A stretch of DNA of 64,000 nt, taken from positions 342,054,001-342,118,000 of the forward strand of contig OZ024742.1 in NCBI GenBank assembly GCA_964016885.1. Reading direction: 5' to 3'. Below, piece by piece: positions 1 through 63,153 of this stretch. This DNA is from Eledone cirrhosa. Its lineage: Eukaryota. A program made the position numbers and the translations under genes. The notes beneath the pieces were generated by a model, which saw only the letters and a list, made by a program, of their open reading frames with translations, searched no databases and had not been told where the DNA came from. The first letter of the stretch is position 1, and each line of letters begins with the position of its first letter.

Positions 1-130
1 GGTCTTGGACATTTTAAGAGTTGCTTCTTACAACTCAGATGGAATATAGAGTACCTATACTAAAAACTAGGACACGTAAAGTATTTGGAATATTTTTTTT
101 TTTTAATAAAAAAAAAATAAAAAAAACTTA

Positions 131-244
<114 letters not shown>

Positions 245-639
245 TCATTTAAAATAAAGCAAATATACATAAGGGAAAATTTTACAAACAAAACAAGTCT
301 TATATCAAGTAGAGCTAATCTTGTCTTAAAGTTGAATCAAGAATATTGTTCATCTCTTTAATCTAATCATGCACCAATTTTTTTTCAACCTATTTCTAAT
401 GAAAAACACTGCCTGGGCAGAGGACTGCCAGAACTGTTAAAGAGTTGGGTGGGATGCTTTGCTGTATTGGATCTGGGTCCACACATTCTGACAAGAGATG
501 CAACCAGCAGATAATATCAGCAATGGAAAGTCCTATGGAAACAATGTTTCTTTGATTCGATTGGATCCTTTATGTATTCAGTTCTAATTTGTAGACAATC
601 TATCCAAGATTGCAAATACAAATGGCCCAAAGGAGGTTC

Positions 640-955
640 CTCTGAAGGGTCTTTGGAGTAATGTTACACAATAGAGTGCATAGCTCGGAGATCAAAGTCA
701 CTCCAGGTAGAGCCACTACATCTCCAATACTATAGGCATGTGCTTAGAATGTTTCAGGAAAGAATCACTGGACAGATGTTATGGTCAAAACCAGATAATA
801 GGAGACCCAGGGGTAAACCCCGAGCAAGATAGTTGGATAAAATCTATGAGCTTGGCTGGTCTCGCTTCAATTGGAGACAGTTGTTTCTGACAGGACCTGC
901 TCGAAGGAGTGTCTGATGATTGTCCAAACAACCCTCTCAGGAATAAGAGAAGACG
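640..955 (+). mobile_element. Decayed RTE LINE 3' fragment in a GAPDH intron
   Basis: 801-910 is clearly similar to 54198-54310 (ggagaccc..gagcaagat..atgagcttggctggtc..ttggagac..tctgacaggacc). Confidence 0.7.
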
Positions 956-1271
956 AATCTGCTATCTCATGTATTGTAATTGTTAGTGTTTACAAAGCTA
1001 GTTCAAAGATTTCCACATATATATCACTAACATCCTTCCATGATTGTATAGGTTAGAGAAGGTGTCACATTATGCCAGACAGGTTACTTAAGTCTAGCTA
1101 ATATGATCTGATTTTGGCTTGGTTGTCTATAGCTAGATACCTTTCCTAATGCCAACCACATTACAGCATGTTCTGGTAGCTTTCTGTCATGGTACCAGTA
1201 TGATGTTAGAAATTCTAACCTCTATTGAATGACCTGACTATGTATTGGACCAACTGTCATTGTCACTATTA

Positions 1272-1484
<213 letters not shown>

Positions 1485-2775
1485 CTAAAAACATTTAATA
1501 TCGCTATTTTTCATAGCGATCTTTGCACAAGCAGAGTAAAGAATAAAGTAGTGTGTGTGTGTAATCAGAGTTGATTTCTACCGTTGAAGATTGTCGTGCT
1601 AATGGGGTTTCATGGGATACATTTATCTTCTTCACTTTAGTTATTTCCCTTACCTCTACTTTTAACTCAAAAGAGTTCACTTTACCTTCCTTTTCCGTTT
1701 TTAAACATCTGAAGTGTTATTTGAAATAGATTTGGTTGAATTCTTTTTTTTTTTTCTATTAATAAAACTTATCTTATAAAAAAAAAAATTATTTTAAATC
1801 CCATATTAAGACTAAATAAAACTAGTGTTAGCAACAAAATGCACCCAGTACACCCAGTAAAGTGATTTGTGACAGGAAAGGCATTTAACCATAAAACAAT
1901 TTGCCAAAGTATCAAGAGTACTCTTCAGTTGTGTCCAAAAACATGAGCTAGAGTTGGTGCAACTATAAAATACACCCGGAACACTAAAATGCAGGAACAA
2001 ATGTCAGCAAAATACAGTCCCCAGCCCAACATAGAGGTCAGTAATTCCTAAAAATTACTGACTGTGGCAACACATTCGATATTAAATGATATATTTAACA
2101 ATTCTCAAAATTAATATATCTTGAGGAACCCTGACATTACTCAGACCCATTTTGGAAACAGTGTTGAGACAGCTAAGCCAAGAAAAGCTATAATTGTTTA
2201 GCTTGCTGGATATTGCAGCTAAACCTCCCTCAAATCAGTGTTCAAAAATTTTTTTTAATTAAAAATATGCAGCTATCACAATTGGAATCCTGAAAAGTCT
2301 ACATGGTCAAAGACATGTCAAATTTTAACAAGATTAAAACCCAATAACCGGTTTTTATTTCTAATGATTTCAAGGAAAGGCAGAATCCATGCTCTTTCTC
2401 AGAACTGGTGAGAGGAAGAGATTAATTTATACTTAAACCATCTGAAAGCCTGGACTAAATGCTTGCATCAAAGAGGAAGTCATTTTATATTACCTAATCA
2501 GTGAATGTTTCACTCAAAATCATATACATTCTGTCATTCTAAGGTCTAGGAAGTACAGGTAACTCAATTCAACCCTCATGTCCAAAATTGTACTTGCACT
2601 ACTGCTTGCCTGCATGCAATTTTTAATCAATTTCAATCTCGGAATCCTTCCCCTTACTTTCCTTGATTCGATTGATCAATGGTGTAAATTTTAATGTATT
2701 TTTTCTATGGGCGGTAGGTGCCTATGTTGTGTTAATATTCTTAACTGTATGAAGATTAATGTTTCAAATACTTAC

Positions 2776-2807
2776 CCGTTGATACCAATGCTGGGTGAAG
2801 GAGCCAT
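2776..2807 (-). CDS. GAPDH: GAPDH canonical start exon (MAPSPSIGING); exon begins at 2819 after a TAG acceptor
   Basis: AAAATGG start context, IGING motif, GG|GTAAG phase-2 donor joining T-TTT-GGC of the next exon. Confidence 0.95.
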
Positions 2808-3853
2808 TTTCTTTGAAGACTACAATAAAAAAGAAAACAGAAATTAAACAATTTTAAATATCTATTACATGATAGTCAGAAAATGATAAAACACTGACGA
2901 CCAACACTGGGGTTGTTTTTAGAAAGCTTTTATTTTATGTATTCAGACATCAAAAGAGTAATATCACCATTTCCCCAACAAATATATTCACATATGTTGC
3001 ATTGGTAAATAAATCACATCTCCATTTTATATGCAATATTTACCATCATCATCGATGTCAAATTTTTCATGTTGGCATGGGTTGGACAGGTCGTCACAGA
3101 CCAACGCCATATTCAATCGGAGCTACTGTCCTTTCACTGGCAGGCTAGAAGCCTACATCTGGCATGGCTTCTACAGCTGGATACCTTTACTATCACAAAG
3201 CACTTTACATAGTATAGTGGGTGTGTTTTATAGTTGCAGCAACACAAAAGAGGTTGACATCTGATAACTGAAGAGTCCTCTCAATCGTTTGACATGGTCT
3301 CTCCAGCTGGATACCCTTCCTTGTGCCAACCACTTCATGAGTGTATTGGGTCCTTGTTTTCATGGCAACAGCACTAAAGATTGGCATGTTCATATACCAT
3401 ATATTTTGAAAGAGTTTTGTAGGTTCAATAGCTATGTTGTCTTTCATGTATTTTGTAGAATTATAAATGGTAATAAACAGACATTTTAAAGTTCCTTTTG
3501 GTTTTATACAAAGTAAATAAAAATACCAATATTCAAATGAGCTGGTTTTGTTTTTTATTTTACTACTAAATAGCTTACAATAAGTAAATCTTAATGACTT
3601 GAATAAAGTGGTAAAATATACCAAATGGGTTAGATATGATTATATATATATATATATATATTGTTCTGGTATCTCAAATTAGTACCATCGAACCACAATT
3701 ATTATAAACACCTTGCATATTTCTACAAGTACTTAGTGCCTGTTGAAGTATTGATCCACTTTTATAATTTTTCTCGTAGAGAACAAAACGTTGAATGCTG
3801 CTAATTTTAGTGGCAATATCAACAGGTTAAAATAAACAGCTATTATCTGTGAC

Positions 3854-3940
3854 CTGATTTTGCGTGTGTCGTTTTAGCGGCTTGACCGCATGCGTTGGGC
3901 AGGAAGCAAAATATTTACTTGCTGTAGGGCTGGCAACCTT
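3854..3940 (-). promoter_or_regulatory. Candidate proximal promoter / non-coding first exon of GAPDH
   Basis: CpG-rich patch about 1 kb upstream of the start exon, GCATGCGT motif at 3888-3895, weak CAG|GTCACA donor at 3853. Confidence 0.35.
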
Positions 3941-4112
3941 ATAGTATGGAAATAAGCTGTCTGAAGATCCATTTCTATCCATTGGAAATTCTCTGGATTT
4001 CCAATTTTTGGAATGGTGAAACCGTCGGTAACAGCAATAGAACAGGTGATTATTTAAATCGTTTTTTAATTTATTTAAGGCATTGTTTGATAACCGGTTG
4101 CTCCGCTCTTTT

Positions 4113-7018
<2,906 letters not shown>

Positions 7019-8675
7019 AAACTAGGTGTTGACGAATGGCTTGTGAGAGCTATACAAGCCATGTATAAAGAAACAGTCAGTAAGGTTAGAATTGACAACG
7101 AATATAGTGAAGAGTTTAGCGTAAAAGTTGGTGTCCATCAGGGCTCTGTTCTTAGCCCCCTACTATTTATTATTGCTCTTCAGGCTATAACAGAGGAGTT
7201 CAAGACCGGCTGCCCATGGGAACTCCTATACGCAGATGATCTAACGCTCATAGCTGAATCAATGACCGAACTAGAAGAAATTCCAAACATGGAAGCACGG
7301 CCTAGAATCAAAAGGCCTTAAAATTAACCTGGCTAAGACTAAAGTTCTAGTTTGTAGGAAAGAAAATAAGGCGGCGGTCCCATCTGGGAAATGGCCATGC
7401 TCAGTGTGTGGGAAAGGCGTAGGTAGAAACTCCATTTTATGTCCCAAATGCAAAGTATGGGTGCATAAAAGATGTAGTGGGATCACAGGTAAGCTAACTA
7501 AGAACATAGATTTTACATGTGGCCGGTGCTCTGGTGCAATAAGTAGCAGCAAGTGCCCACAAAATACTAGCTCCTTCAACTGCGCAGAGGGTTCTATAGA
7601 AATAGTGGACAGCTTCCGTTATCTGGGTGACAAAATCAGCAGTGGGGGAGGGTGCTCTGAAAGTACAGTAGCTAGAGTCAGAACTGGATGGAAAAAGTTC
7701 AGAGAGCTTATACCACTATTAGCCGCTAGAGGGTTCTCCCTAAAAATGAAAGGCAGGTTATACGATGCCTGCATACGAACAGCAATGCTGCATGGCAGTG
7801 AGACCTGGGCATTGTGTGCAGAGGATATACGCAGACTAGAGAGGAACGAAGCTTGCATGCTCCGCTGGATGTGCAATAGTAATATACGTGAACGGCAAAG
7901 CATAAACGAACTAAGGAAAAAATTAGAAATAAGAGGGATCAGATGTTGTTTACTCGAGAGAAGGCTACGTTGGTACGGTCACGTGATGCGCATGAAAGAC
8001 GACAGCTGTATAACAAAGTGCAGGGCAATAAAGATAGACGGTAGCCACGGAGTAGGCAGACCCAGAAAAACATGGGACGAGCTGATAAATTCCGACCTCA
8101 CACGCTTACACCTCTCCAAGACAATGTCACTGGACCGAGACCTTTGGCGGTACTCAGTAATAGAGAAGACCCGCCTTACCTAAATACAAAGTAAAAACCT
8201 ACTAGTCAGTAGGCATCTCTATCAAAACACACCCCTGTCCCACCACCTCCACCCCACCCACACCGCCCCTTTCAATGTAAAGTTATGTTGGTCCCACAAC
8301 ATCCAGGCCGAAACAAATGAGATCGTGTAGGTGTCACGACAAAAAACACACAGTCCACGCTGTAAATGTGGCCGTGTAGGCAACACGGTAAAAACCTCCC
8401 AGCCCCACACTGTAAATGTGGTTGGTGTTAGGAAGGGCATCCAGCTGTAGAAAACCCGCCAGACAGTCCACGCTGTAATGTGGCCGTGTAGGCAACACGG
8501 TAAAAACCTCCCAGCCCCACACTGTAAATGTGGTTGGTGTTAGGAAGGGCATCCAACTGTAGAAAACCCGCCAGACAGTCCTATGCGAGCAAGACAACCA
8601 CTCTTGCCTCAAGTGGGAAAACCCCCGTCCAAACCCATGCAAGCGTGGAACACGGACGCTAATCCTGATGATGAT
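7019..8675 (+). mobile_element. 5'-truncated RTE-clade LINE: RT C-terminal half with PHD insert, 3' UTR and (GAT)n tail
   Basis: [31 protein letters not shown] and GRPRKTW motifs. Frameshift near 7278 (2 bp missing relative to the copy at 62.8 kb); stop at 8183; tail GATGATGAT. Confidence 0.95.
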
Positions 8676-8981
8676 AAATATATAAATATATATAAATAAA
8701 TATATCTATATATCTATATATAAATATATATATATATATATAAATATATATATATAAATATATAAATATATATATATAAATATATATATATATAAATATA
8801 TAAATATATAAATATATAAATATATATATAAATATATATATATATAAATATATAAATATATATATAAATATATATATATATAAATATATAAATATATATA
8901 TATAAATATATAAATATATATATATAAATATATAAATATATATATATATATAAATATATATATATAAATATATAAATATAT

Positions 8982-9020
<39 letters not shown>

Positions 9021-9074
9021 AATATATAAATATATATATATATATATAAATATATATATATAAATATATAAATA
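8676..9074. repeat. (TA)nAA microsatellite
   Basis: Direct inspection. Confidence 0.98.
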
Positions 9075-9297
9075 TCATCATCATCATCAACGTTTAACGT
9101 CCGTGTTCCACGCTTGCATGGGTTTGGACGGGGGTAGTCCCACTTGAGGCAAGAGTGATTGTCTTGCTCGCATAGGACTGTCTGGCAGGTTTGCTACGGT
9201 TGGATGCCCTTCCTAACACCAACCACATTACAGCGCGGACTGTGTGTTTTTTTTGTCGTGACACCTACACGATCTCATTTGTTTCGGCCTGGATGTC
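9075..9297 (-). mobile_element. Short 3'-UTR-only copy of the same RTE family
   Basis: Reverse complement of parts of 8300-8675, with a (GAT)n tail. Confidence 0.88.
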
Positions 9298-9305
9298 GCA
9301 GCACC

Positions 9306-11418
<2,113 letters not shown>

Positions 11419-13910
11419 ATGGATGATTTCTTCCTATCCCAACTGGTGCTCGAACCAACGAGGTGCCACAAAAACGTCCTAGACTTAATTTTCAGCAATC
11501 ACACTGACAATATCCACAATATTGCAGTGGAGAAAACTCTACTCTCTGATCATGACATGGTTCTCTGTGATCCGAGATTCCACCGTCCAATATACAAACC
11601 CAATGTCATCTCTCCTGTCCATCCGTTTGACGCTATGGATTTCCACAATGCAAACTGGGAAGCGATCAGTCATGATCTTGCACATGTCGACTGGTCCTTC
11701 ACGCACACTCATACACCCACTAACATCAAAAAGTCCTGGCAGACATTTGTGGACACTGTTACAAACATATGTGCTAAACACACCCCATTAAGAACTATAA
11801 ACAAATCTAAGAGCAGAATCCCTAGAAATAGAAAAACACTCATCAGAAAAATTAAGAGAACGAACAAAAAAATCAACAAGCTGAAATACCGTCAGCAGCA
11901 ACACATCAACTTGACTGCCATTTCATCACTAGAGATTAAAAAACATAACCTCCAAAACAACATAATGTCCCTCATCAACAATCAGAGAAGAGCTGAAGAG
12001 GCCTGGGCCATTGAGAAGATCAAACTCAATCCCAAAGTGTTCTTTTCATTTGCAAAAAAACACAAAATCACTGGCTCTACTGTTGGCCCTCTAATTAATG
12101 AAAATGGCACTCTTCAAGACAATGCTAAAACCATGGGTGAGATACTGCAGAAACAATACTGCTCTGTTTTCAGCAATCCTGATATGGCCGATCTGGGCTG
12201 TATCGGCGATGTTACTCCCCATTACACCTTATCGGACATAAGGTTTGGCGCCCCTGATGTCTTGGCGGCAATAAAGGAAATCAAGCATAATTCAGCAGTA
12301 GGTCCCGATAGGTTCCCTGCTTGTGTCTTGAAGGCGTGTCAACACCAACTTGCATCTCCTCTTGCCAATCTGTGGCGGAACTCACTGGATGCTGGATATG
12401 TGCCAGAAAACCTATCCCAGTCTGTTGTCCCAGTTTTCAAAAAGGGAAACAAATCCCTTGCCGTGAATTACCGTCCAATCTCACTCACCTCTCATATCAT
12501 TAAGGTATTTGAGAGAGTGGTGAGATCGCAAATGACCCACTTCCTTGAGAGTAACAATATGCTGAACTCCAACCAGCATGGATTCCGTAATGGAAGGGAT
12601 TGCCTGATGCAGCTACTGCATCACTTTGATGACATTTTGAGAGCCTTGGGAGAGGGTTCCAACACTGATGTTATCTACCTTGATTTCAGCAAGGCCTTTG
12701 ACAGGGTTGATCATAACATTCTACTGAGAAAGCTGTCCAATATTGGTGTCACTGGAAAGCTGCTGCAGTGGATCAAGAGCTTCCTGTCAAACAGAACCCA
12801 ACATGTTGTAGTTGAGGGAGTCAAATCCAGCCCAGCCAAAGTCAGTAGTGGGGTCCCACAAGGCACTGTGTTGGGCCCACTTCTCTTCATCTATATTAAT
12901 GACATCACTGACATCATCAAACACAGCAACATTAAAATTTTCGCTGATGATTCCAAGCTCCAAAAGGTCATCAATGGCGTGGATGACCGGATAAGCCTTC
13001 AGTCAGACCTACTGGCTGTTACCCAATGGGCGGAAAAGAACATGTTACTGAACGAAGACAAATTCGAACTGATCCACTTTGGAAAAGAGGATGCTCTGAA
13101 ACTCCCGTACTCCCTTCCCTCCGGGGAAACTCTCGTGGCATCTAACAACATCAGAGACTTGGGAGTAACCGTGGACAGCAACATAAGCTGGACCACGCAT
13201 ATAAACAGCAAAGTTGACATGGCCCGCAGAATGTGTTCCTGGATCCTCAGAACCTTCCAGTCGAGAGATTCCCCGCACCATTATCCTTCTCTTCTCTACT
13301 TTTGCCCGAGCACACCTTGAATACTGTTGTCCACTGTGGTCTCCCCACACGAAACAAAGTATCATGAAACTTGAAGCTCCTCAAAGGGCAATCACGAAAA
13401 AGATAGATGGCATGTCAAACCTTGACTACTGGGGTCGATTACAAAACCTGAAACTTTACTCACTCCAACGTCGCCGTGAGCGTTATATTATCTGCATGAT
13501 GTGGAAAATGTTCCATCATCACTGCCCAAATGATGATGGCATCGCCTTCAAGATACACCCAAGGCTTGGGCCCCGTGCTATCCGTCCCATTCAAAAATCT
13601 AAATCGCAACTCATAACAACAATACGGCACAATTATTTCACCTCAATCGGCCCTGCTCTCTTCAACATCACACCAGGACACGTCAAAACAGAAACTGACC
13701 ACACAAAATTCAAGAAGTCTTTGGACAAATTCCTCCAAGTAATCCCGGACAAAACACCCACACCCGGATATGTCTCCGCAAACAGTAATTCTCTTCTCGA
13801 ATGGGCCATGGTGCCCAAATCCTGAATTGAAAGACTTCGCCAGGTGGTGCTATTAAGTTAGACATGGCCTGGGCAAATACTGGCCAAAACATTTCAAAGC
13901 TATTCAAAGT
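11419..13910 (+). mobile_element. 5'-truncated CR1-group LINE ORF2 (end of AP endonuclease plus RT), one frameshift near 13270
   Basis: LDLIF..SDH endonuclease end; NYRPISLT, QHGFR, YLDFSKAFD, SGVPQGTVLGP, FADDSK and DLGV motifs; LEYC..LWSP and LYSLQRRRER in the shifted frame; embedded in AT microsatellite. Confidence 0.95.
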
Positions 13911-13929
13911 TATATATATATATAAATAT

Positions 13930-13962
<33 letters not shown>

Positions 13963-14116
13963 AATATATATAAATATATATAAATATATAAATATATATA
14001 TATAAATATATAAATATATAAATATATATATATAAATATATAAATATATAAATATATATATAAATATATATATATATAAATATATATATATATAAATATA
14101 TAAATATATATATATA

Positions 14117-14184
<68 letters not shown>

Positions 14185-14198
14185 AATATATATATATA

Positions 14199-14232
<34 letters not shown>

Positions 14233-14256
14233 AATATATATATATATAAATATATA

Positions 14257-14290
<34 letters not shown>

Positions 14291-14309
14291 AATATATATA
14301 TATATAAAT

Positions 14310-14342
<33 letters not shown>

Positions 14343-14343
14343 A

Positions 14344-14374
<31 letters not shown>

Positions 14375-14417
14375 AATATATATATAAATATATATATATA
14401 TAAATATATATAAATAT

Positions 14418-14448
<31 letters not shown>

Positions 14449-14620
14449 AATATATATATATATAAATATATATAAATATAAATATATATAAATATATATA
14501 AATATATATATATATAAATATATATATATAAATATATATATATATAAATATATATATATATAAATATATATATATAAATATATATATATATAAATATATA
14601 TATATAAATATATATATATA

Positions 14621-14656
<36 letters not shown>

Positions 14657-14874
14657 AATATATAAATATATATATATAAATATATATATATAAATATATA
14701 TATATAAATATATATATATAAATATATATATATAAATATATATATAAATATATATATATAAATATATATATATAAATATATATATATAAATATATATATA
14801 TATAAATATAAATATACAAATATAAATATATAAATATAAATATATATATATAAATATAAATATATATATATATA
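13911..14874. repeat. (TA)nAA microsatellite
   Basis: Direct inspection. Confidence 0.98.
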
Positions 14875-15207
14875 TCATCATCATCATCATCATTTCATTT
14901 TACGTCCACTTTTCCCTGCTTGCAAGGTTGGGACGGGAACTGATTCTGGCTTGATTTCTACAGCTGGATGCCCTTCCTAACACCAACCTCATTTACAGTG
15001 AGTGCTGGGTGCTTTTTTGCCGTGGCACCTCCACGAGTGATAGGGATCCCAGTCCCTATAATCTCATTTCTACAGCTGAGTAAACTGGAGCAACGTGAAA
15101 TAAAGTGTCTTGCTCAAGGAAACAACACATCACCCGGTCTGAGAATTGAACTCACAACCTTTCGATTGCAAAGCCAATGCTCTAACCACTAAGCCATGTG
15201 CCTCCAT
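14875..15207 (-). mobile_element. tRNA-derived SINE family A with an RTE-derived 3' tail (other copies about 22090-22360, 23042-23328, 25810-25980, 30590-30815)
   Basis: Minus strand has A-box TGGCTTAGTGG, B-box GAGTTCAATTC and a CCTTGAGCAAGACACTT core. The tail matches 63841-63895 and ends in (GAT)n. Confidence 0.9.
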
Positions 15208-15224
15208 ATAAATATATATATATA

Positions 15225-15258
<34 letters not shown>

Positions 15259-15474
15259 AATATATATAAATAAATATATATATATATATATAAATATATA
15301 TAAATAAATATATATATATATATATAAATATATATAAATATAAATATATATAAATATATATAAATATAAATATATATAAATATATATATAAATATATATA
15401 TATAAATATATATATATAAATATATAAATATATATATATAAATATATAAATATATATATATATATATAAATATA

Positions 15475-15508
<34 letters not shown>

Positions 15509-16130
15509 AATATAAATATATATATATAAATATATATATATATAAATATATATATAAATATAAATATAAATATATATAAATATATATATATAAATATATA
15601 TATATAAATATATATATATAAATATATATATATAAATATATATATATAAATATATATATATAAATATATATATATAAATATATATATATAAATATATATA
15701 AATAAATATATATATATAAATAAATATATAAAAATATATATAAATATATATAAATATATATAAATAAATATATAAATATAAATATATATATATAAATATA
15801 TATAAATAAATATATAAATATATATATAAATAAATATATAAATAAATATATAAATATATATATAAATATATATATAAATATATATATATAAATATATATA
15901 AATAAATATAAATAAATATATATATATATATAAATATATATATAAATATATATATATGAATAAATATATAAATATATATATAAATATATATATAAATATA
16001 TATATATATAAATATATATATATATAAATATATAAATATATATATATATATTTATAAATATATAAATATATATATAAATATATAAATATATATATAAATA
16101 TATATATAAATATATATATATAAATATATA
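15208..16130. repeat. (TA)nAA microsatellite
   Basis: Direct inspection. Confidence 0.98.
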
Positions 16131-16483
16131 TTTCGTTTCTGAATTTGTTTAGCAAGATTCTTTATCTGAAATCGTGTGTTGAAACCGATATTGTTATACT
16201 TTGGGAGGGTCATGTTGCCAATAAGAAACACACGCACCAGTTGCTTTCACTTCAATTTAATTTATTATATATTTATAAATTTACAAATTTATAAATTTCT
16301 GGTTGGTTGGTTGGTTCCACAGCCAGATAGTTGTTTATATATATATAGTCAGTTCTTTCGTCACACTGTGACCTCTTCAGTGACTGGGGATTTCTTTCTT
16401 CGTTTCTGTGCCTTTCCTTTCTTCTATCCTACGCCATTTTGGAGGAATTTGTCCAACATGACCCTCCCAAAGTATAACAATAT
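16131..16483 (-). mobile_element. Penelope-like remnant with a 30-bp inverted repeat and a degenerate hammerhead
   Basis: 16188-16217 is the exact reverse complement of 16454-16483. Minus strand 16385-16347 reads AGTCA CTGAAGA GGTCAC AGT GTGAC GAAA GAAC TGACT. Confidence 0.6.
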
Positions 16484-17110
<627 letters not shown>

Positions 17111-17197
17111 TGTAGGAGGTGAGTTTTATTGTAGTACAATAAAGCAATGCAGATATCGGATAAGAAGCACTCTACAGTTTGTGGGACTGGAGTATGC

Positions 17198-17541
17198 ATA
17201 ATATAAGATCAAAAGATGGTTAAAGGAGTTCAATATATTTTATTATGCGCATTTCAAAAACAAACATCATCAAACAATAATATTTGTGTTTTCATCAGAT
17301 AAAACAGGAGAACATGATATGAAGGCTAAAAAAACACTTGTTGATAGTGCAGTTTTAAATCAACATATATGTTGATTTAAAACTGCACTATCAACAAGTG
17401 TTTTTTTTTTTAGCCTTCATATCATGTTCTCCTGTTTTATCTGATGAAAACACAAATATTATTGTTTGATGATGTTTGTTTTTGAAATGCGCATAATAAA
17501 ATATATTGAACTCCTTTAACCATCTTTTGATCTTATATTAT
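17198..17541. mobile_element. Spacer-less ~344-bp palindrome (Penelope-like inverted pLTR)
   Basis: Centre CAACATA|TATGTTG (17367/17368); the arms differ visibly only in the length of an A/T run. Confidence 0.85.
17433..17503 (+). ncRNA. Minimal type I hammerhead ribozyme (mirror copy 17236-17306, minus strand)
   Basis: TGTTTTAT [stem I] CTGATGA AAA-C-ACAAATATTATT-gttt-GATGATGTTTGT-T-TTT [stem II] GAAA TGCGCA TA^ ATAAAATA [stem I']. Confidence 0.82.
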
Positions 17542-19428
<1,887 letters not shown>

Positions 19429-21750
19429 CCATCCAACCCATTCAAGCGTGGAAAAATAGTGGTATGATAGTGTTTAAACTTTTCCAGTTGAATACATAAT
19501 TTACAACAGCTGGAGAGAGAGCACCAAATCAATACATAGCTACAATAATCAATACAAATGAACAGCTGCAATGGTAGCTAATATGTATCATTATCAATTG
19601 GAATGTTAAATATCTCTCTGAATCATGTGTTGTGTTGTAATGTACACAAGGCACCAGAACAACAAAACAAATAAGACAGAATAAAGAAGAAATCAGTTTT
19701 GGCTACCAAATAAAACTAAGCTTCAAACAGTCTCATGGTTTACACAATTGAAATGGTCACATTTTATGTCATACAGAACAGCCTCACCAATCCCAGCCAT
19801 ATTCAGCAAGGAGTATTTAGGAAGAACAAAACAACAGCCAATCAAATACATCAACTTCTCATAAGACCCAGGTGCTATTGGTGGTGGTTGTGGCAGAGGT
19901 GATAAGCTTATATGCCATGAAATACGATACTTTATTGTCATGAGACTTTACATTAAGATCCTGCCCTATCTTATCTATAACCTTAACCTATTATATCGAA
20001 ACCTACATAGTGTAGGTTGTTGACAATGTTATGACAGTCTTCCTCCCTAACCAATCATTTACAGCCTTAACTCTTTACTAGATTAGTTTTCATACTTTCT
20101 TTTCTCACCACACAAACTGTACAACAAATTTTATATCAGTTTCCCATACTAGATAGGTTGTCACAGTGAATAACCAGGTCTGAGAACCACACATTACTCA
20201 TACACTCCATTCTTAACGCCAACCACTTTGCATTATGTGCCACCATCACTACTACTTCAGAGTATACGGTGTGCATTTTATGACATCAGTACACCTGCTT
20301 TAGTATACTTCATGCAATATATTGTGGTGCCAATGCTACCACTTCAGAGAGTATTGTGTACATTTTACAGTGGCATCAACACTACCACTTCAATGTTCCC
20401 TACATTTTGTAGCACCAACACGACCACTTCACAATCCTCTCTAAGTTGTTACTATCTGATCAACTACTTCACACCATGTACTAAGTACATTTTATTTTTA
20501 ACAAAATTATAAGCAAACAACTTTATTTGATAATGTATTTTTAAGATAAGTTTTTAAACAAAACATGCATAGCAAAAACTATTAAGATTTAAAAACCGAC
20601 AGGAGGAAAAGAGAAAAACAAAACTGCAAATTTTCTAGTTTCACATCAGGAAACCAACAGCTCAACCATTTTAAGTCATTTTAAATTAAACGAAGGTTCC
20701 TGAAAAGAGGGGTGGAGTATGGAAGTTTGCGATGTTCATGCCTTTCCAAGAAGCATTAGTATAAATTAAATCAAGTGAAATGGTTGCAAACAAAAAATAG
20801 AAAATTAGTTGAAAACCTGAAGATTATGTCAATAGGTTTATAAAATAATGGTTTCTAATTTAGGCACAAAGCCAACAATGGTTGAGGAAGAAGAACATTA
20901 ATTTGGTTTTTGTATTGGTGTTCCCCAAAGATGGGTTGAACTAGTTCTAACTAACATATCCATAACACCACAGAGGTCACATCCACAATTACAGACGTCT
21001 GACACATCAGAGAAGTCACAGTTCCGATGGTGGACACCATATACATATGGGAGGGGCTGATATTAGCTCAAGATCTAGCTCGATCATACCAGTCCACATT
21101 TTCATATCTCCCCACCTCATACCAACACAATATAATTGTAGGTAAAACCAAGTACAATGTCCACAACATTTGATGACTTTTTCATAGATTTAATCCTTGC
21201 TATTTACCTTTTTTCTTTTAAAATGTTAAATACCTATTTCAATGGTAAGTAGTGTGGTAGAACTTGCTTAAGGAAACAATACACTACACTGTCAGCAGAA
21301 ATGAAATCCTTACTTTACAAAAAGTCAATTCAGTCACACACACAATGTTGACAATTTTACAGCACGTCACTGCACCACATAAGGTTTAAGAGAAATGAGA
21401 AAAACAGTTGAAACAGATTCACATATGCCTGACTATGTTAACCTTCACCAAAATATTCAGTTATTGTGTTTAAAACCTGTCAACAGCCTGGGGGTTTTGC
21501 TTTATTTCTCTATGTACAACACAGATACGCTTGTGTGCACAAACATACACAGAGGCACATATACCAACAAATACAGAGGCACAAGCATACAGACAGTTAT
21601 TAAATTTAATGCAGTTAACATTCAGATTAGAAAATGTAGTCAACACAATTTAGATAGCAATGCATTTATTTTTAAATTTTAGCAATAATAACCGATATTT
21701 AAAAAAATATCCAACAAATTTATTTACATGTCAAAAACACACACACACAC

Positions 21751-38112: not shown

Positions 38113-38130
38113 AATTAGTGGAGTAAATAC

Positions 38131-38454
38131 ACAATATATTAATAAATGGAAACTATATTTATAAAACCATATTTATTTTATTATATATATTTCAAAGGCA
38201 ACCAAGGCAAATTATGGTGCGCTTTCATCAGATAAAATACAGATTTGTTTTATAAATAAATATTGACATATTGACCCGGAAAAAAAGACAACCTTAACGG
38301 TTGGAGCTTCCTGGTATGTCAATATTTATTTATAAAACAAATCTGTATTTTATATGATGAAAGCGCACCATAATTTGCCTTGGTTGCCCTTGAAATATAT
38401 ATAATAAAATAAATATGGTTATATAAATATAGTTTCCATTTATTAATATATTGT
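38131..38454. mobile_element. Palindromic Penelope-like element, 140-bp arms and 44-bp spacer
   Basis: 38131-38270 vs 38315-38454 with about 3 mismatches; homologous to 55700-56054. Confidence 0.85.
38174..38239 (-). ncRNA. Minimal type I hammerhead ribozyme (the plus-strand mirror 38346-38411 has a C>A core change)
   Basis: TATTTTAT CTGATGA AAGCGCACC..GGTTGCCTTT GAAA TATATA TA^ ATAAAATA. Confidence 0.78.
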
Positions 38455-38480
38455 ATATATATATATATATAAACAATATA

Positions 38481-38688: not shown

Positions 38689-39949
38689 TATTTCTTTATT
38701 TACCATAAAGGCATAAAAAGAAGGGACAAATAGAAAGGGGGAGTTTACATATAATCGAGTAAAAAGGGTGTAACATGAAAATAATCGAAAATAACCTCAA
38801 AAGGGAGGCGACGTGATGGGGGTTGCACACACCCCCGAAAAAGTGTGCAATCCTTTGCCCGGGGAGCACATGGAGAAGGTGCTCCCCTCTCCTTTACTTC
38901 TTTACCTACAGGAAGGTATACAGAGAAGGCCCATTTACACGAGCCATTCTCGCCACTATCACCCACCTTTCATAAAACTGCCTGTGGCCAAGCACCTCTC
39001 TCTCCATTCTTATCCTTCTTCCGAAGTGATATCGGAAGAAGTAGACCAGACTATGGCCAGAGAGGAAGTTGCCTGACCTCAGACCTTTCAATCGTGTCCA
39101 CCAAACAACCTCTTTCAACATGGCTATTACGCACAGAAAAACCGCCTTTGCTTCCTTTGTGAAGAGGGGAGGCGGTTTGATTGTCATCACGGACTCGGTG
39201 GTCAATTGAATCGGCGCCACCCGCGACAGCAGTCGTTCGGCGTAGCCCCACAGATCAGCCACGCCCGGACATTGCACCAATGCGTGCGCAACGGTTTCTT
39301 CGTGACGCACGCATCTAGGGCAAATCTTTTTTGAGGGATCCCTGCCCGGGCGCCCGTGTCTGTAGAGCCTCTCTCGAACGGGTAGAGCCCCCCGGTAGCA
39401 CTGCCAGGCCAGTGACTTCTGGAAGTTGTCCATTGGTCCTGGGCCGAAAGTCCTACCGAACAGGCTGGCCAGTTCGTCTTCTTCCATGTCCAGCGACTCT
39501 CCAAGGGTGTCATCGCCCCTGCTAGCCACCAGCCCTCTATAGAATGATGAGGTGGATTCTCCACCGATGGCCTGGCCCGCTTGCCAGAGAGCCCTGAGCG
39601 CCTGAGCACACTCAGTGTGCCAGTCTCCCAGTTTTCCGGATCTTTGCTTGACCCAGGACTGTAGCTCGGTGAGCGAGACGAGTCTCGGAAAGGCTCGTTT
39701 CACGAACGGAGCCCACACCGGTTGACCAGTGAGGAATACCTGTAGGTGCCGTAGCCTTAATGCGTGCCTACGCATCATCAACCACGGCATCCCCAGCCCT
39801 CCTTTCGAAGGTTGTTGGCAGCAGATGGATCTTCTCACCATAGGAGGGCGCTTCTTCCAAAGAAATTGGAAGAGCATGCGTTCCATGGTGGTGAGTGTTT
39901 CCTTAGGGCGAGGCACGACAGTCAGGCGGTAGTAAGTGACGGACGCTAT
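38689..39949 (-). mobile_element. 5'-truncated L1/Tx1-clade LINE 3' end (post-RT region with CCHC zinc knuckle) and a 19-bp TSD
   Basis: FQFLW, KGGLGMP, ALPVRERL and CPRC..ETVAHALVQC motifs; AATAAA near the 3' end; AAACATATATAGATAGATA at both 38670-38688 and 39950-39968. Confidence 0.9.
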
Positions 39950-40219
39950 AAACATATATAGATAGATAGACATTTACTTACATACATGGATACATAAGTA
40001 CATACATACACAACATACATTCATGCATACATTACACACATACACACGCACACATATATATATATATATATATACACTCACACACACACACAACCATCAC
40101 ACATGTTTTCCCCCCTTTCTTCCTCTTCTCACTCTCTATCTTTCTATTTTTATTTTATTTTTATTTCTATCTTTTGATGAAAGACTAATGTCGGAAACGT
40201 AAAGTATTTCACTTCTTCA

Positions 40220-51758: not shown

Positions 51759-51829
<71 letters not shown>

Positions 51830-51922
51830 AGTTTATGTTGGTTGTATACCAACACCTCAGTATGCAGGCTGGAGCACTCGACGAAGTGCGCAGGTTGGTT
51901 TGGTTACTCCGGAGTAGTGTAA

Positions 51923-52354
51923 AATAAAGTTAAATAAAAGTCAAATGATTAAAATTTAGCTTCGTTTATTACTGCTATATATATTTCAGTGACAGCCATC
52001 TTTGGCTGTGACCTCTTCAGGCAGTTTGAATTAGTATGGTATAGACAAGTACATATGTTGTTTAGGTGTATGATATTGTCAATACTCTGATATGCTCAGT
52101 TCCTTGCTGGGTTGTTAATTCACTGGGGAACTGGAGTCATATGACTCCAGTTCCCCAGTGAATTAACAACCCAGCAAGGAACTGAGCATATCAGAGTATT
52201 GACAATATCATACACCTAAACAACATATGTACTTGTCTATACCATACTAATTCAAACTGCCTGAAGAGGTCACAGCCAAAGATGGCTGTCACTGAAATAT
52301 ATATAGCAGTAATAAACGAAGCTAAATTTTAATCATTTGACTTTTATTTAACTT

Positions 52355-52358
<4 letters not shown>
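51923..52358. mobile_element. Apparently perfect spacer-less 436-bp palindrome (Penelope-like inverted pLTR), with a left extension at about 51825-51922
   Basis: Centre GGAGTCAT|ATGACTCC at 52140/52141; 218-bp arms; right end abuts (TA)n. Confidence 0.9.
52256..52310 (+). ncRNA. Minimal type I hammerhead ribozyme (mirror copy 51971-52025, minus strand)
   Basis: ACTGC CTGAAGA GGT-C-ACAGCC-aaagat-GGCTGT-C-ACT GAAA TATATA TA^ GCAGT, followed by AATAAA. Confidence 0.85.
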
Positions 52359-52442
<84 letters not shown>

Positions 52443-61507: not shown

Positions 61508-63153
61508 TCATCATCATCATCGTCGTTTAACGTCTATCTTCCACACTAGCATGGGAGTTGTCATACTTGAGGCAAGAATGGTCGGGTGACTATGTCTCGC
61601 TCGTATAGGGCTGTCTGGTAGGTTTTCTACGGCTGGATGCCCTTCCTAACACCAACCACGTTTACAGTGTGGACTGGGAAGTTTTTTCCGTGTTACCTAC
61701 ACGGCCACATTACAGCGTGGACTGTGTGGTTTTTTTTTTGTCGTGACACCTACACGACCTCATTTATTTAGGACTGGATGTTGTGGTACCAACATAACTT
61801 TACAGAGAGAGTGTGGTGTTAGTGGGGGGGGGGGGGAGTAGTGGGATGGGGTATATATTTGGTTAAGAGGTGCCTACTGACTGTAGGTTTCGCTTTGTAC
61901 TTACGCGAGGTGGGTCTTCTGTATTACTGCGTAACGCCAAAAATCTCGGTCCAGTGACATTGTCTTGGAGAGGTGTGTGTAAGGTCGGAATTTATCAAAT
62001 CGTCCCAGGTTTTTTGGGGTCTACCTACTCCGTAACTTCCATCAATTTTGATCGCCCTGCACTTTTTTTATACAACTGTTGTCTTTCATGCGCATCACGT
62101 GACCACACCAATGTAGTCTTCTTTCGAGTAAACAGCATCTGATCCTTCTTATTCCTAATTTCTCACTTAGTTCATTTATGCTTTGCCATTCGCATATTAC
62201 ACATCCAACGGAGCATGGATGCTTCGTTCCTCTCCAGTCTGCGCAGATCCTCTGCACACAATGCCCACGTCTCACTGCCATGTAGCATTGCTGTTCGTAT
62301 ACAGGCATCATACAATCTGCCTTTCATTTTTAGCGAGAAACCTTTAGTGGCCAATAGTGGTATTAGCTCTCTGAACTTTTTCCATCCCGTTCTGACTCTG
62401 GCTACTGAACTGTCAGAGCACCCTCCACCACTGCTGATTTTGTCACCCAGGTAACGGAAAGTGTCCACTATTTCTATAGAACCATCTGGGCAATAGAAGG
62501 AGATAGTATCCTGTGGGCACTTGCTACTTATTGCACCTGAGCATCGGCCACATATAAAATCTACGTTATTAGATAGCTTACCTGTAATCCCACTACATCT
62601 TTTATGTACCCATTGTTTGCATTTGGGACATAAAATGGAATTTCTGCCTACTCCATTCCTACACACTGAGCATGGCCATTTCCCAGAGGGTTCCTGTACC
62701 CTATTTTCCTTTCTACATACTAGAACTTTAGTCTTAGACAAGTTAACTTTAAGGCCTTTTGATTCTAGGCCATGCTTCCATGTTTGGAATTTCTTCTCTA
62801 GTTCAGTCATCGATTCTATGAGAGTTAGATCATCTGCATATAGAAGTTCCCATGGGCAGCCGGTCTTGAACTCCTCTGTTATAGCCTGAAGGGCAATAAT
62901 AAATAGGAGGGAGCTAAGGACAGAGCCTTGATGAACATCAACTATTCATCAACACCTAGTTTTCTAAGAGCCCACCAGATAATGGAGCAGGGGACGCTGT
63001 CAAAGGCTTTCTCCAAGTCAACAAAAGCTAAGTATAGGGGTTTACTTTTAGCTAGGTACTTCTGTAGTTGTCGTACAAGGAAAAGAGCGTCCGTGGTACT
63101 TTTACCTGACACAAACCTAAACTGCATTTCATCTAGATCAATTCGTTCTCTGA
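61508..63153 (-). mobile_element. Second copy of the PHD-containing RTE family, with an internal ~87-bp deletion near 62945
   Basis: Homologous to 7019-8675 including the 3' UTR and (GAT)n tail; extends further 5' (FVDLEKAFD). Confidence 0.95.

Follow-up and report, generated by a model that had tools for sequence, protein, structure and literature searches.

How does a perfect palindrome with no spacer, carrying a hammerhead ribozyme motif in each arm, come to stand in the genome of Eledone cirrhosa, and is it peculiar to a single locus? The window analyzed here, a stretch of 64,000 nt, had been described in a sequence-only reading as containing a 436-bp palindrome with faultless arms, and a base-by-base check agreed with that description. 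Complementarity is perfect for 218 nt on either side of the axis between positions 52140 and 52141 (51923–52358), the halves meet without a spacer, and the left arm (51923–52140) and right arm (52141–52358) are 100% identical over 218 nt. A repeat search returned slightly longer arms of 221 nt (51920–52361), in which BLAST placed one mismatch within the outermost 3 nt; no further copy of the arm was found within the 64,000-nt window.

Reading the locus from left to right gave an (AT)n microsatellite at 51760–51824, the left part of the target tract, followed on the minus strand by a tail (51825–51919) that is the reverse complement of the first ~95–100 nt of a retroelement (its 5′ end; CACTACTCCGGAG...CTCAAAAT) and that recurs at other loci at one end of the unit only. 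The left arm (51920–52140, minus strand) is the 3′-terminal unit of the element, the pLTR, from position 221 to position 1. The right arm (52141–52358, plus strand) was assigned to positions 1 to 218 of the same unit from the repeat search, the base-by-base check and other loci; it passes directly and without a tail into (TA)n and then (TG)n (52359–52441, from sequence reading and the repeat search), the right part of the target tract. At the junction of the two 5′-truncated copies lies the axis, a self-complementary hexamer CATATG (52138–52143), marked by an exact 32-nt junction that recurs across the genome. The outer ends of both arms abut (TA)n at this locus, and (TA)n adjoins every family insertion examined. 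Since the left flank at 51825–51919 is the tail in reverse complement, the element is larger than the 51923–52358 first ascribed to it and reaches left to 51825.

The window palindrome is an inverted pLTR pair of a Penelope-like element (PLE), a layout that has already been described. Inverted pLTRs, palindromes at the inverted junction, a one-sided tail, heavy 5′ truncation and (TA)n targets are all reported for PLE insertions in the relevant passages of two earlier studies (PMC3846280; PMC8557442). As those passages present them, insertions of PLEs with an endonuclease (EN+) resemble the present family in their head-to-head copies, junction palindrome, tail on one pLTR and 5′ truncation, and also in partial tandems, (TA)n targets and a hammerhead in the pLTR. 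They have an ORF between the arms, whereas the window locus is a bare inverted pLTR pair; their tail measures 30–40 nt, against ~95–103 nt in this family; and, unlike the insertions described there, the junction studied here is exact and recurrent at many loci.

The retroelement that supplies the arms

The arm is the last 218 nt of a retroelement of ~4.1 kb with an 894-aa ORF. It has hundreds of genomic copies, 98–100% identical (40 scored of 531 candidates), and in non-palindromic copies the sequence runs on upstream of arm position 1 into the conserved element. One full copy (L036) consists of an inverted 5′-truncated copy (1704–3312, 1609 nt), a plus-strand copy (3304–7389) and a tail (7390–7486). 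The plus-strand copy carries the 894-aa ORF and then a 3′ region of ~1.3 kb ending in the 218-nt unit, which is followed by the ~100-nt tail and (TA)n. The tail is the element's own beginning, and in 52 copies it continues into the 5′UTR and ORF.

A structure model of ORF residues 101–520 (pLDDT 87.0) had the telomerase reverse transcriptase (TERT) structure 3du5 as its top Foldseek match (E 3e-10), followed by several more TERTs and then by other reverse transcriptases (RTs). The ORF contains the motifs RWK39, DKT122, YRDD353, CxCX5C754, GIY..YIG without the second cysteine, CKLC852 and CRH880, and in a language-model atlas it lies beside clusters carrying HTH_animal, DUF8422, GIY-YIG and RVT_1, a placement that we treat as a lead only. 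Pfam, including RVT_1, gave no match on the ORF or on three homologues, and a search of the PDB by sequence gave none with either the single sequence or a 30-sequence profile. As these searches recognise neither an RT nor a nuclease, family membership rests on predicted folds together with motifs. On that basis the ORF is predicted to fold as a telomerase-like reverse transcriptase with a C-terminal GIY-YIG nuclease, and the element fits an EN+ PLE.

The element also carries the motif set of the Hydra clade, and its placement there, made by motifs alone, fits. The passages on this clade in Craig et al. (2021; PMC8557442) list RWK, DKT in place of DKG, a CxCX5C linker, no CCHH in the GIY-YIG domain, and CxxC plus CxH near the end, in elements that insert into (TA)n and carry hammerheads. 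Our element matches RWK, DKT, CxCX5C, the absence of CCHH, CxxC/CxH, the (TA)n target and the hammerhead; members of the clade are given there as generally <3 kb (PMC8557442), compared with ~4.1 kb and an 894-aa ORF here. Homologues of ~700 aa cover just 52–57% of the ORF. Between the RT and the nuclease, the L036 ORF (3413–6094) includes ~240 aa of low complexity, with G, P, N, T and R abundant, which the ~700-aa homologues lack and which recall the N-rich inserts mentioned for rotifer PLEs in a passage of PMC3846280.

Other coding traces in the window are LINE-type RT and PHD-finger ORFs at 7275–8183, 11416–13320 and 62172–62945. The first 20 kb (1–19600) consist mostly of microsatellite-like arrays that are open in several frames.

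The hammerhead motif

The right arm holds a minimal type I hammerhead motif at 52256–52310 on the plus strand, found by hand reading and by a motif scan, and its stems I and II are present in the minimum free energy (MFE) fold. By hand reading, stem I pairs ACUGC (52256–60) with GCAGU (52306–10) over 5 bp, the core CUGAAGA lies at 52261–67 and GAAA at 52294–97, and stem II pairs 52268–78 with 52283–93. Helix III is a 2-bp stem with an AUAU loop inside the palindromic UAUAUAUA. U16.1 corresponds to 52304 and A17 to 52305, with cleavage predicted after A 52305, and an AATAAA hexamer (52311–52316, plus strand), which is also retained in diverged subfamily copies, stands directly past stem I. The motif scan placed the mirror motif of the left arm at 52025–51971 on the minus strand, with predicted cleavage after 51976. 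Each arm thus has the full type I core (C3 U4 G5 A6 G8 A9 G12 A13 A14 A15.1 U16.1 H17) between three helices, and the core, cleavage site and AATAAA stand where the sequence-only reading had put them. Its description of this motif as the cleanest hammerhead was generous, given the G.U at 10.1–11.1, a C.C mismatch in stem II and a helix III of 2 bp.

A custom descriptor scan picked out 5 hammerhead motifs in the window, and 100 windows simulated with a Markov-1 model yielded none. The Rfam hammerhead models gave no match at the gathering score over the whole window, nor at E≤10 on 571 nt or 81 nt of it. A hammerhead found by hand can be real as a motif and yet escape every Rfam model.

Two further hammerhead-bearing structures were seen in the window. 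At 17193–17546, a near-palindrome of an unrelated family, flanked by a TA-rich microsatellite, has 142-nt arms at 99% identity and a perfect 80-nt centre, with its axis between 17367 and 17368; its motifs (17441–17495, plus strand; 17298–17244, minus strand) have CUGAUGA, an 8-bp helix I and a palindromic helix III, UGCGCA. At 38124–38461, an inverted pair with 147-nt arms (97%) and a 44-nt spacer contains a hammerhead-like motif at 38231–38182 on the minus strand, and an ORF with a zf-RVT match (38906–39973) adjoins the pair. The A/U-rich stem II of the window's three hammerhead families gave no reliable alignment, and has 3 bp in the descriptor scan.

The G10.1–C11.1 pair is absent in the window copy, where a U at 52293 makes it G.U. 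Genome counts of a 35-mer over this site gave 4387 copies with U and 1546 with C, the latter restoring G–C at 10.1–11.1, and the C variant made up 43% of the word depth in run X1. In a comparison between subfamilies (L074), the 55-nt motif differs at 1 site, the pair-preserving change at 10.1–11.1, against 24 of 166 elsewhere in the unit (Fisher p 0.005); a second comparison (L075), which is not independent of the first, gave 2 differences in the motif against 21 elsewhere (p 0.04). The L073 row was left out as misaligned. No compensatory double change was seen in the motif between subfamilies in these two non-independent comparisons, and a decayed copy at 70% identity has lost G12. At most, the pattern hints at sequence constraint on the motif.

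Cofolding of two motif copies gave –43.8 kcal/mol with an 8-bp intermolecular helix of UAUAUAUA, compared with –16.7 for a single copy and –13.3 kcal/mol when one copy is constrained to the hammerhead shape. A transcript that spans both arms is predicted to fold into a 216-bp hairpin (–387.8 kcal/mol), and the motif, being locked in that hairpin, could act solely in single-arm transcripts. The palindromic context speaks against ribozyme action in transcripts that read through both arms, and in favor of long double-stranded RNA. Cervera and de la Pena (2014; PMC4209133) report that, in vitro, minimal PLE hammerheads with a 2-bp helix III show no activity as monomers and weak activity as dimers. 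The minimal type I hammerheads of metazoan PLEs treated there resemble the present one in their 5-bp helix I, long helix II, pLTR location and tiny palindromic helix III that permits an RNA dimer, but their G10.1–C11.1 pair is called "highly conserved" (PMC4209133), in contrast to the G.U and helix II mismatch found here. For the window hammerhead the prediction is weak activity at most, and solely as an RNA dimer. Hammerhead cleavage was also considered as the setter of the insertion ends and found unsupported: insertions terminate at the tail end or at position 221 rather than at 165/166.

Animal non-LTR retrozymes are reportedly the subject of work by Cervera and de la Pena from 2020. In the part of Li et al. 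(2026; 10.64898/2026.07.22.740005) that deals with them, they are short non-coding sequences derived from PLEs, with type I hammerheads in direct tandem repeats that are thought to yield circular RNAs. The two window motifs, by contrast, lie on opposite strands, so that one transcript holds a single sense ribozyme.

Recurrence of the palindromic junction and variants shared between arms

The 32-nt axis of the window palindrome was found, letter for letter, at 128 genomic loci, with 0 for the control, so the palindrome is not the singular event that it had first been taken for. It shows the standard PLE footprint: two pLTRs in inverse orientation within (TA)n, one of them with a tail. The continuing junction, in which the element runs on upstream, occurs 520 times, and 1318 units hold positions 1–32. 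We examined 25 axis loci, 20 in listing order and 5 already in hand, and 19 of them are full palindromes. The arms are perfect over at least 217 nt at 10 of the 25 and differ by one mismatch at 5 and by three at 1, while in 3 further full palindromes the differences are confined to the outer end or to an assembly gap. The second arm measures just 30–72 nt at another 5 loci of the sample. Variation is located at the palindrome centre, with the outer ends intact. The recent formation proposed for the window palindrome agrees with the youth of the family, whose copies differ by just 0–3 of 218 letters, and because they differ so little, perfect arms need no gene conversion. The arm-to-arm conversion offered as an alternative is therefore unnecessary.

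The tail is present on exactly one side in all 18 assessable full palindromes, and likewise in all 5 partial palindromes and all 4 pairs of unequal arms; under independent arms, the chance of 18 one-sided tails in 18 would be at most 0.5^18. One palindromic copy (L065; G000:C1:432603217-432604616) was excluded from this count for an assembly gap, a run of N that begins inside the outer part of one arm. PLE structures of this kind are said in the literature to trouble assemblers, which the gap at L065 fits.

Single arms and unequal pairs are common in the family. Head-to-head pairs with unequal 5′-truncated arms measured 1332/2466, 757/1386 and 582/1046 nt (L021–L023) and 1609/4086 nt (L036), and were joined directly with an overlap of 1–9 nt. 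Among the first 100 places of the U-form 35-mer, hand reading of pair spacings gave 19 head-to-head pairs, 4 of them at the 218/218 spacing. Direct upstream partial copies were seen in 30 sampled ORF-bearing copies. A diverged subfamily B (87–91% identical) shares the boundary and also forms the one-tailed palindrome (L075).

Both window arms carry the haplotype G34+A45 (at positions 34 and 45 of the unit), which was found in just 4 arms of the assembly: the two of the window and the two of a palindromic locus on contig 12 (G000:C12:28830647-28831082; L001/L004) that likewise has its tail on one side. This twin and the window have no common flank beyond microsatellites, and segmental duplication was rejected as its source on those grounds. 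A variant T56 was found solely in both arms of one locus (L057), and at four others (L059, L061, L064 and L069) rarer variants are common to both arms, two of these occurring at 6 and 26 places genome-wide. The sharing of G34+A45 by both arms and by one other palindromic locus points to one template, and it is likely that one RNA template, reverse-transcribed during a single insertion event, gave rise to both arms. At two loci (L005 and L008), the arms differ at the family's polymorphic site 34, and there two templates or a later mutation must be assumed.

How the inverted pair may form

Taken with the geometry of the locus, these observations make it highly probable that the palindrome represents two 5′-truncated pLTR copies (218 nt) of a young PLE, set head to head in (TA)n with a left tail and likely derived from one template in one event. 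We propose that the nuclease would cut the (TA)n tract and that cDNA synthesis would have two priming points on the template, at its tail end and at position 221. Each cDNA would extend to a discrete 5′ end, position 1 to within 3 nt, where the two cDNA 3′ ends would pair in the self-complementary CATATG and be filled in, giving an axis without a spacer; alternatively, the enzyme might turn back on its own product. The hammerhead would travel as cargo of the pLTR. The second arms of 30–72 nt at 5 of 25 loci fit the turn-back of one cDNA better than two primings and tell against one simple path. Inside (TA)n, no target-site duplication is readable. In LINE-1 twin priming, cDNA synthesis starts from both ends of the cleaved target and microhomology joins the products; that process inverts part of a copy without duplicating it, whereas here both arms are the same 3′-terminal sequence. 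The turn-back of the enzyme on its own product corresponds to a self-priming idea for PLEs raised in a passage of Arkhipova et al. (2013; PMC3846280).

Position 1 is a discrete end. In a sample of 20 junctions that were neither exactly palindromic nor exactly continuing, 13 begin there (within 3 nt), adjoining (TA)n or part of the tail; another 5 are near-palindromes interrupted by a gap at the centre, and 2 are continuing copies that carry a mismatch. At two loci (L060, 640–720; L063, 600–720), a strand switch is seen, or the last ~30 nt are repeated two to three times at the axis, as though the polymerase had shuttled to and fro at the template end. Two accounts of the arm boundaries were set aside. 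That position 1 is the transcription start of an upstream direct pLTR was unsupported, since upstream direct copies start at many points in the 30 copies sampled, and that (TA)n microhomology alone fixes the end of the second arm was likewise unsupported, as the (TA)4 inside the motif is not a preferred end among the head-to-head pairs in the first 100 places of the U-form 35-mer.

In a variant of this explanation, rather than its opposite, the pLTR, tailed or tailless, would be a non-autonomous element that propagates itself: palindromic or solo copies would be transcribed starting at position 1, the PLE enzyme would copy them in trans, and palindromes would beget palindromes. We consider it rather unlikely, although several observations favor it. 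The haplotype G34+A45, confined as it is to four arms of two palindromic loci, is absent from the continuing copies of the assembly; a cross-reading by hand of the first 100 places that hold positions 1–32, together with the 20 sampled junctions, indicated that ~59 of 100 units reaching position 1 stop there; and subfamily B, despite its divergence, retains both boundary and one-tail palindrome. On the other hand, the source copy of the haplotype may be missing from the assembly or lost, and the units are 99–100% identical to the 3′ ends of ORF-bearing copies, which leaves no separate lineage.

Two independent insertions in opposite orientation, back to back in the same (TA)n tract, are very improbable. 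Family copies number in the thousands, (TA)n is their preferred target, and the arms that differ at site 34 (L005 and L008) would suit such an origin, but it requires truncation at the same nucleotide and abutment without one (TA) unit at 128 loci, and it is at odds with the rare and locus-private variants common to both arms and with the strictly one-sided tail of all 18 assessable full palindromes. Equally hard to sustain is an origin at the DNA level, in which a solo copy was later made palindromic by template switching at CATATG, or its arms were kept identical by gene conversion. That the axis is a 6-nt palindrome, and that conversion would yield perfect arms, speaks for it. An inverted duplication would, however, copy the microsatellite flank and sequence past it, whereas the arms end at the element terminus with the tail on one of them, and no arm extending into duplicated flanking DNA was found among the 25 sampled axis loci. 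The same outcome would also be needed at 128 loci, and in so young a family the arms can be identical without conversion.

Perfect palindromes without a spacer are a known class of artefact from fold-back chimeric reads, and one palindromic locus (L065) borders an assembly gap, but an assembly or sequencing error at the window is scarcely credible, the junction being common to 128 loci with unique flanks and lying at an element-specific site. A short-read contig of run X1 crosses the axis over 37 letters with no difference (word depth 1457), one of run X5 (another sample under the same organism label) covers 21 letters on each side with no difference, and one of run X6 (another organism label) covers 15 and 26 letters around it. 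These contigs have 11–24 letters on the shorter side, below the 31+31 bridging rule; since the continuing form has just 3 letters in common with the inverted arm, they are specific for the palindromic junction. With 128 loci in different flanks and contigs from three runs, the family junction is not an assembly artefact. Pieces of the element (window 51826–52361) were also found, with no difference over 106–223 letters, in contigs of X4, X6, X7 and X8 under organism labels B, C, D and E, which could mean that the organisms are closely related, that this very young family goes back to a common ancestor, or that it was transferred.

It is likewise barely conceivable that the palindrome represents a fold-back DNA transposon, a MITE with long terminal inverted repeats or a miRNA-like hairpin-RNA gene. 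Its shape and sub-threshold Rfam matches to miRNA precursor models (mir-1641, 51 bits with gathering 104; MIR8007, 54 with gathering 195) recall one, but the arms belong to an RT/GIY-YIG retroelement, of which they form the 3′ end, many copies stand as single arms or as unequal pairs, and the Rfam miRNA matches, far below gathering, are generic long-hairpin matches.

The object itself is ordinary, the footprint of a known kind of retroelement. Inverted pLTR pairs are under-annotated, and they confuse assemblers and repeat maskers. The family is very young and of high copy number, and it offers hundreds of fresh insertions in which the poorly understood PLE cycle can be read, including its two priming sites, the template end, the turn-around or joining step and the one-sided tail. 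The one-tail rule, the private variants shared between arms, the discrete 5′ end and the twin with the unique haplotype bear on the unsolved mechanism of PLE insertion. Tentatively, and with more doubt than confidence, we suggest that the family may offer genome-scale evidence of how PLEs build their inverted repeats, with both arms copied from one template molecule in an inherently asymmetric process that stops at a discrete 5′ end and is sealed at a self-complementary hexamer, and that the 218-nt end with its tail may act as a self-propagating mini-element, palindromes seeding palindromes, as the haplotype confined to two loci would suggest. If this were true, the long-standing self-priming hypothesis for PLEs would become directly testable in this species.
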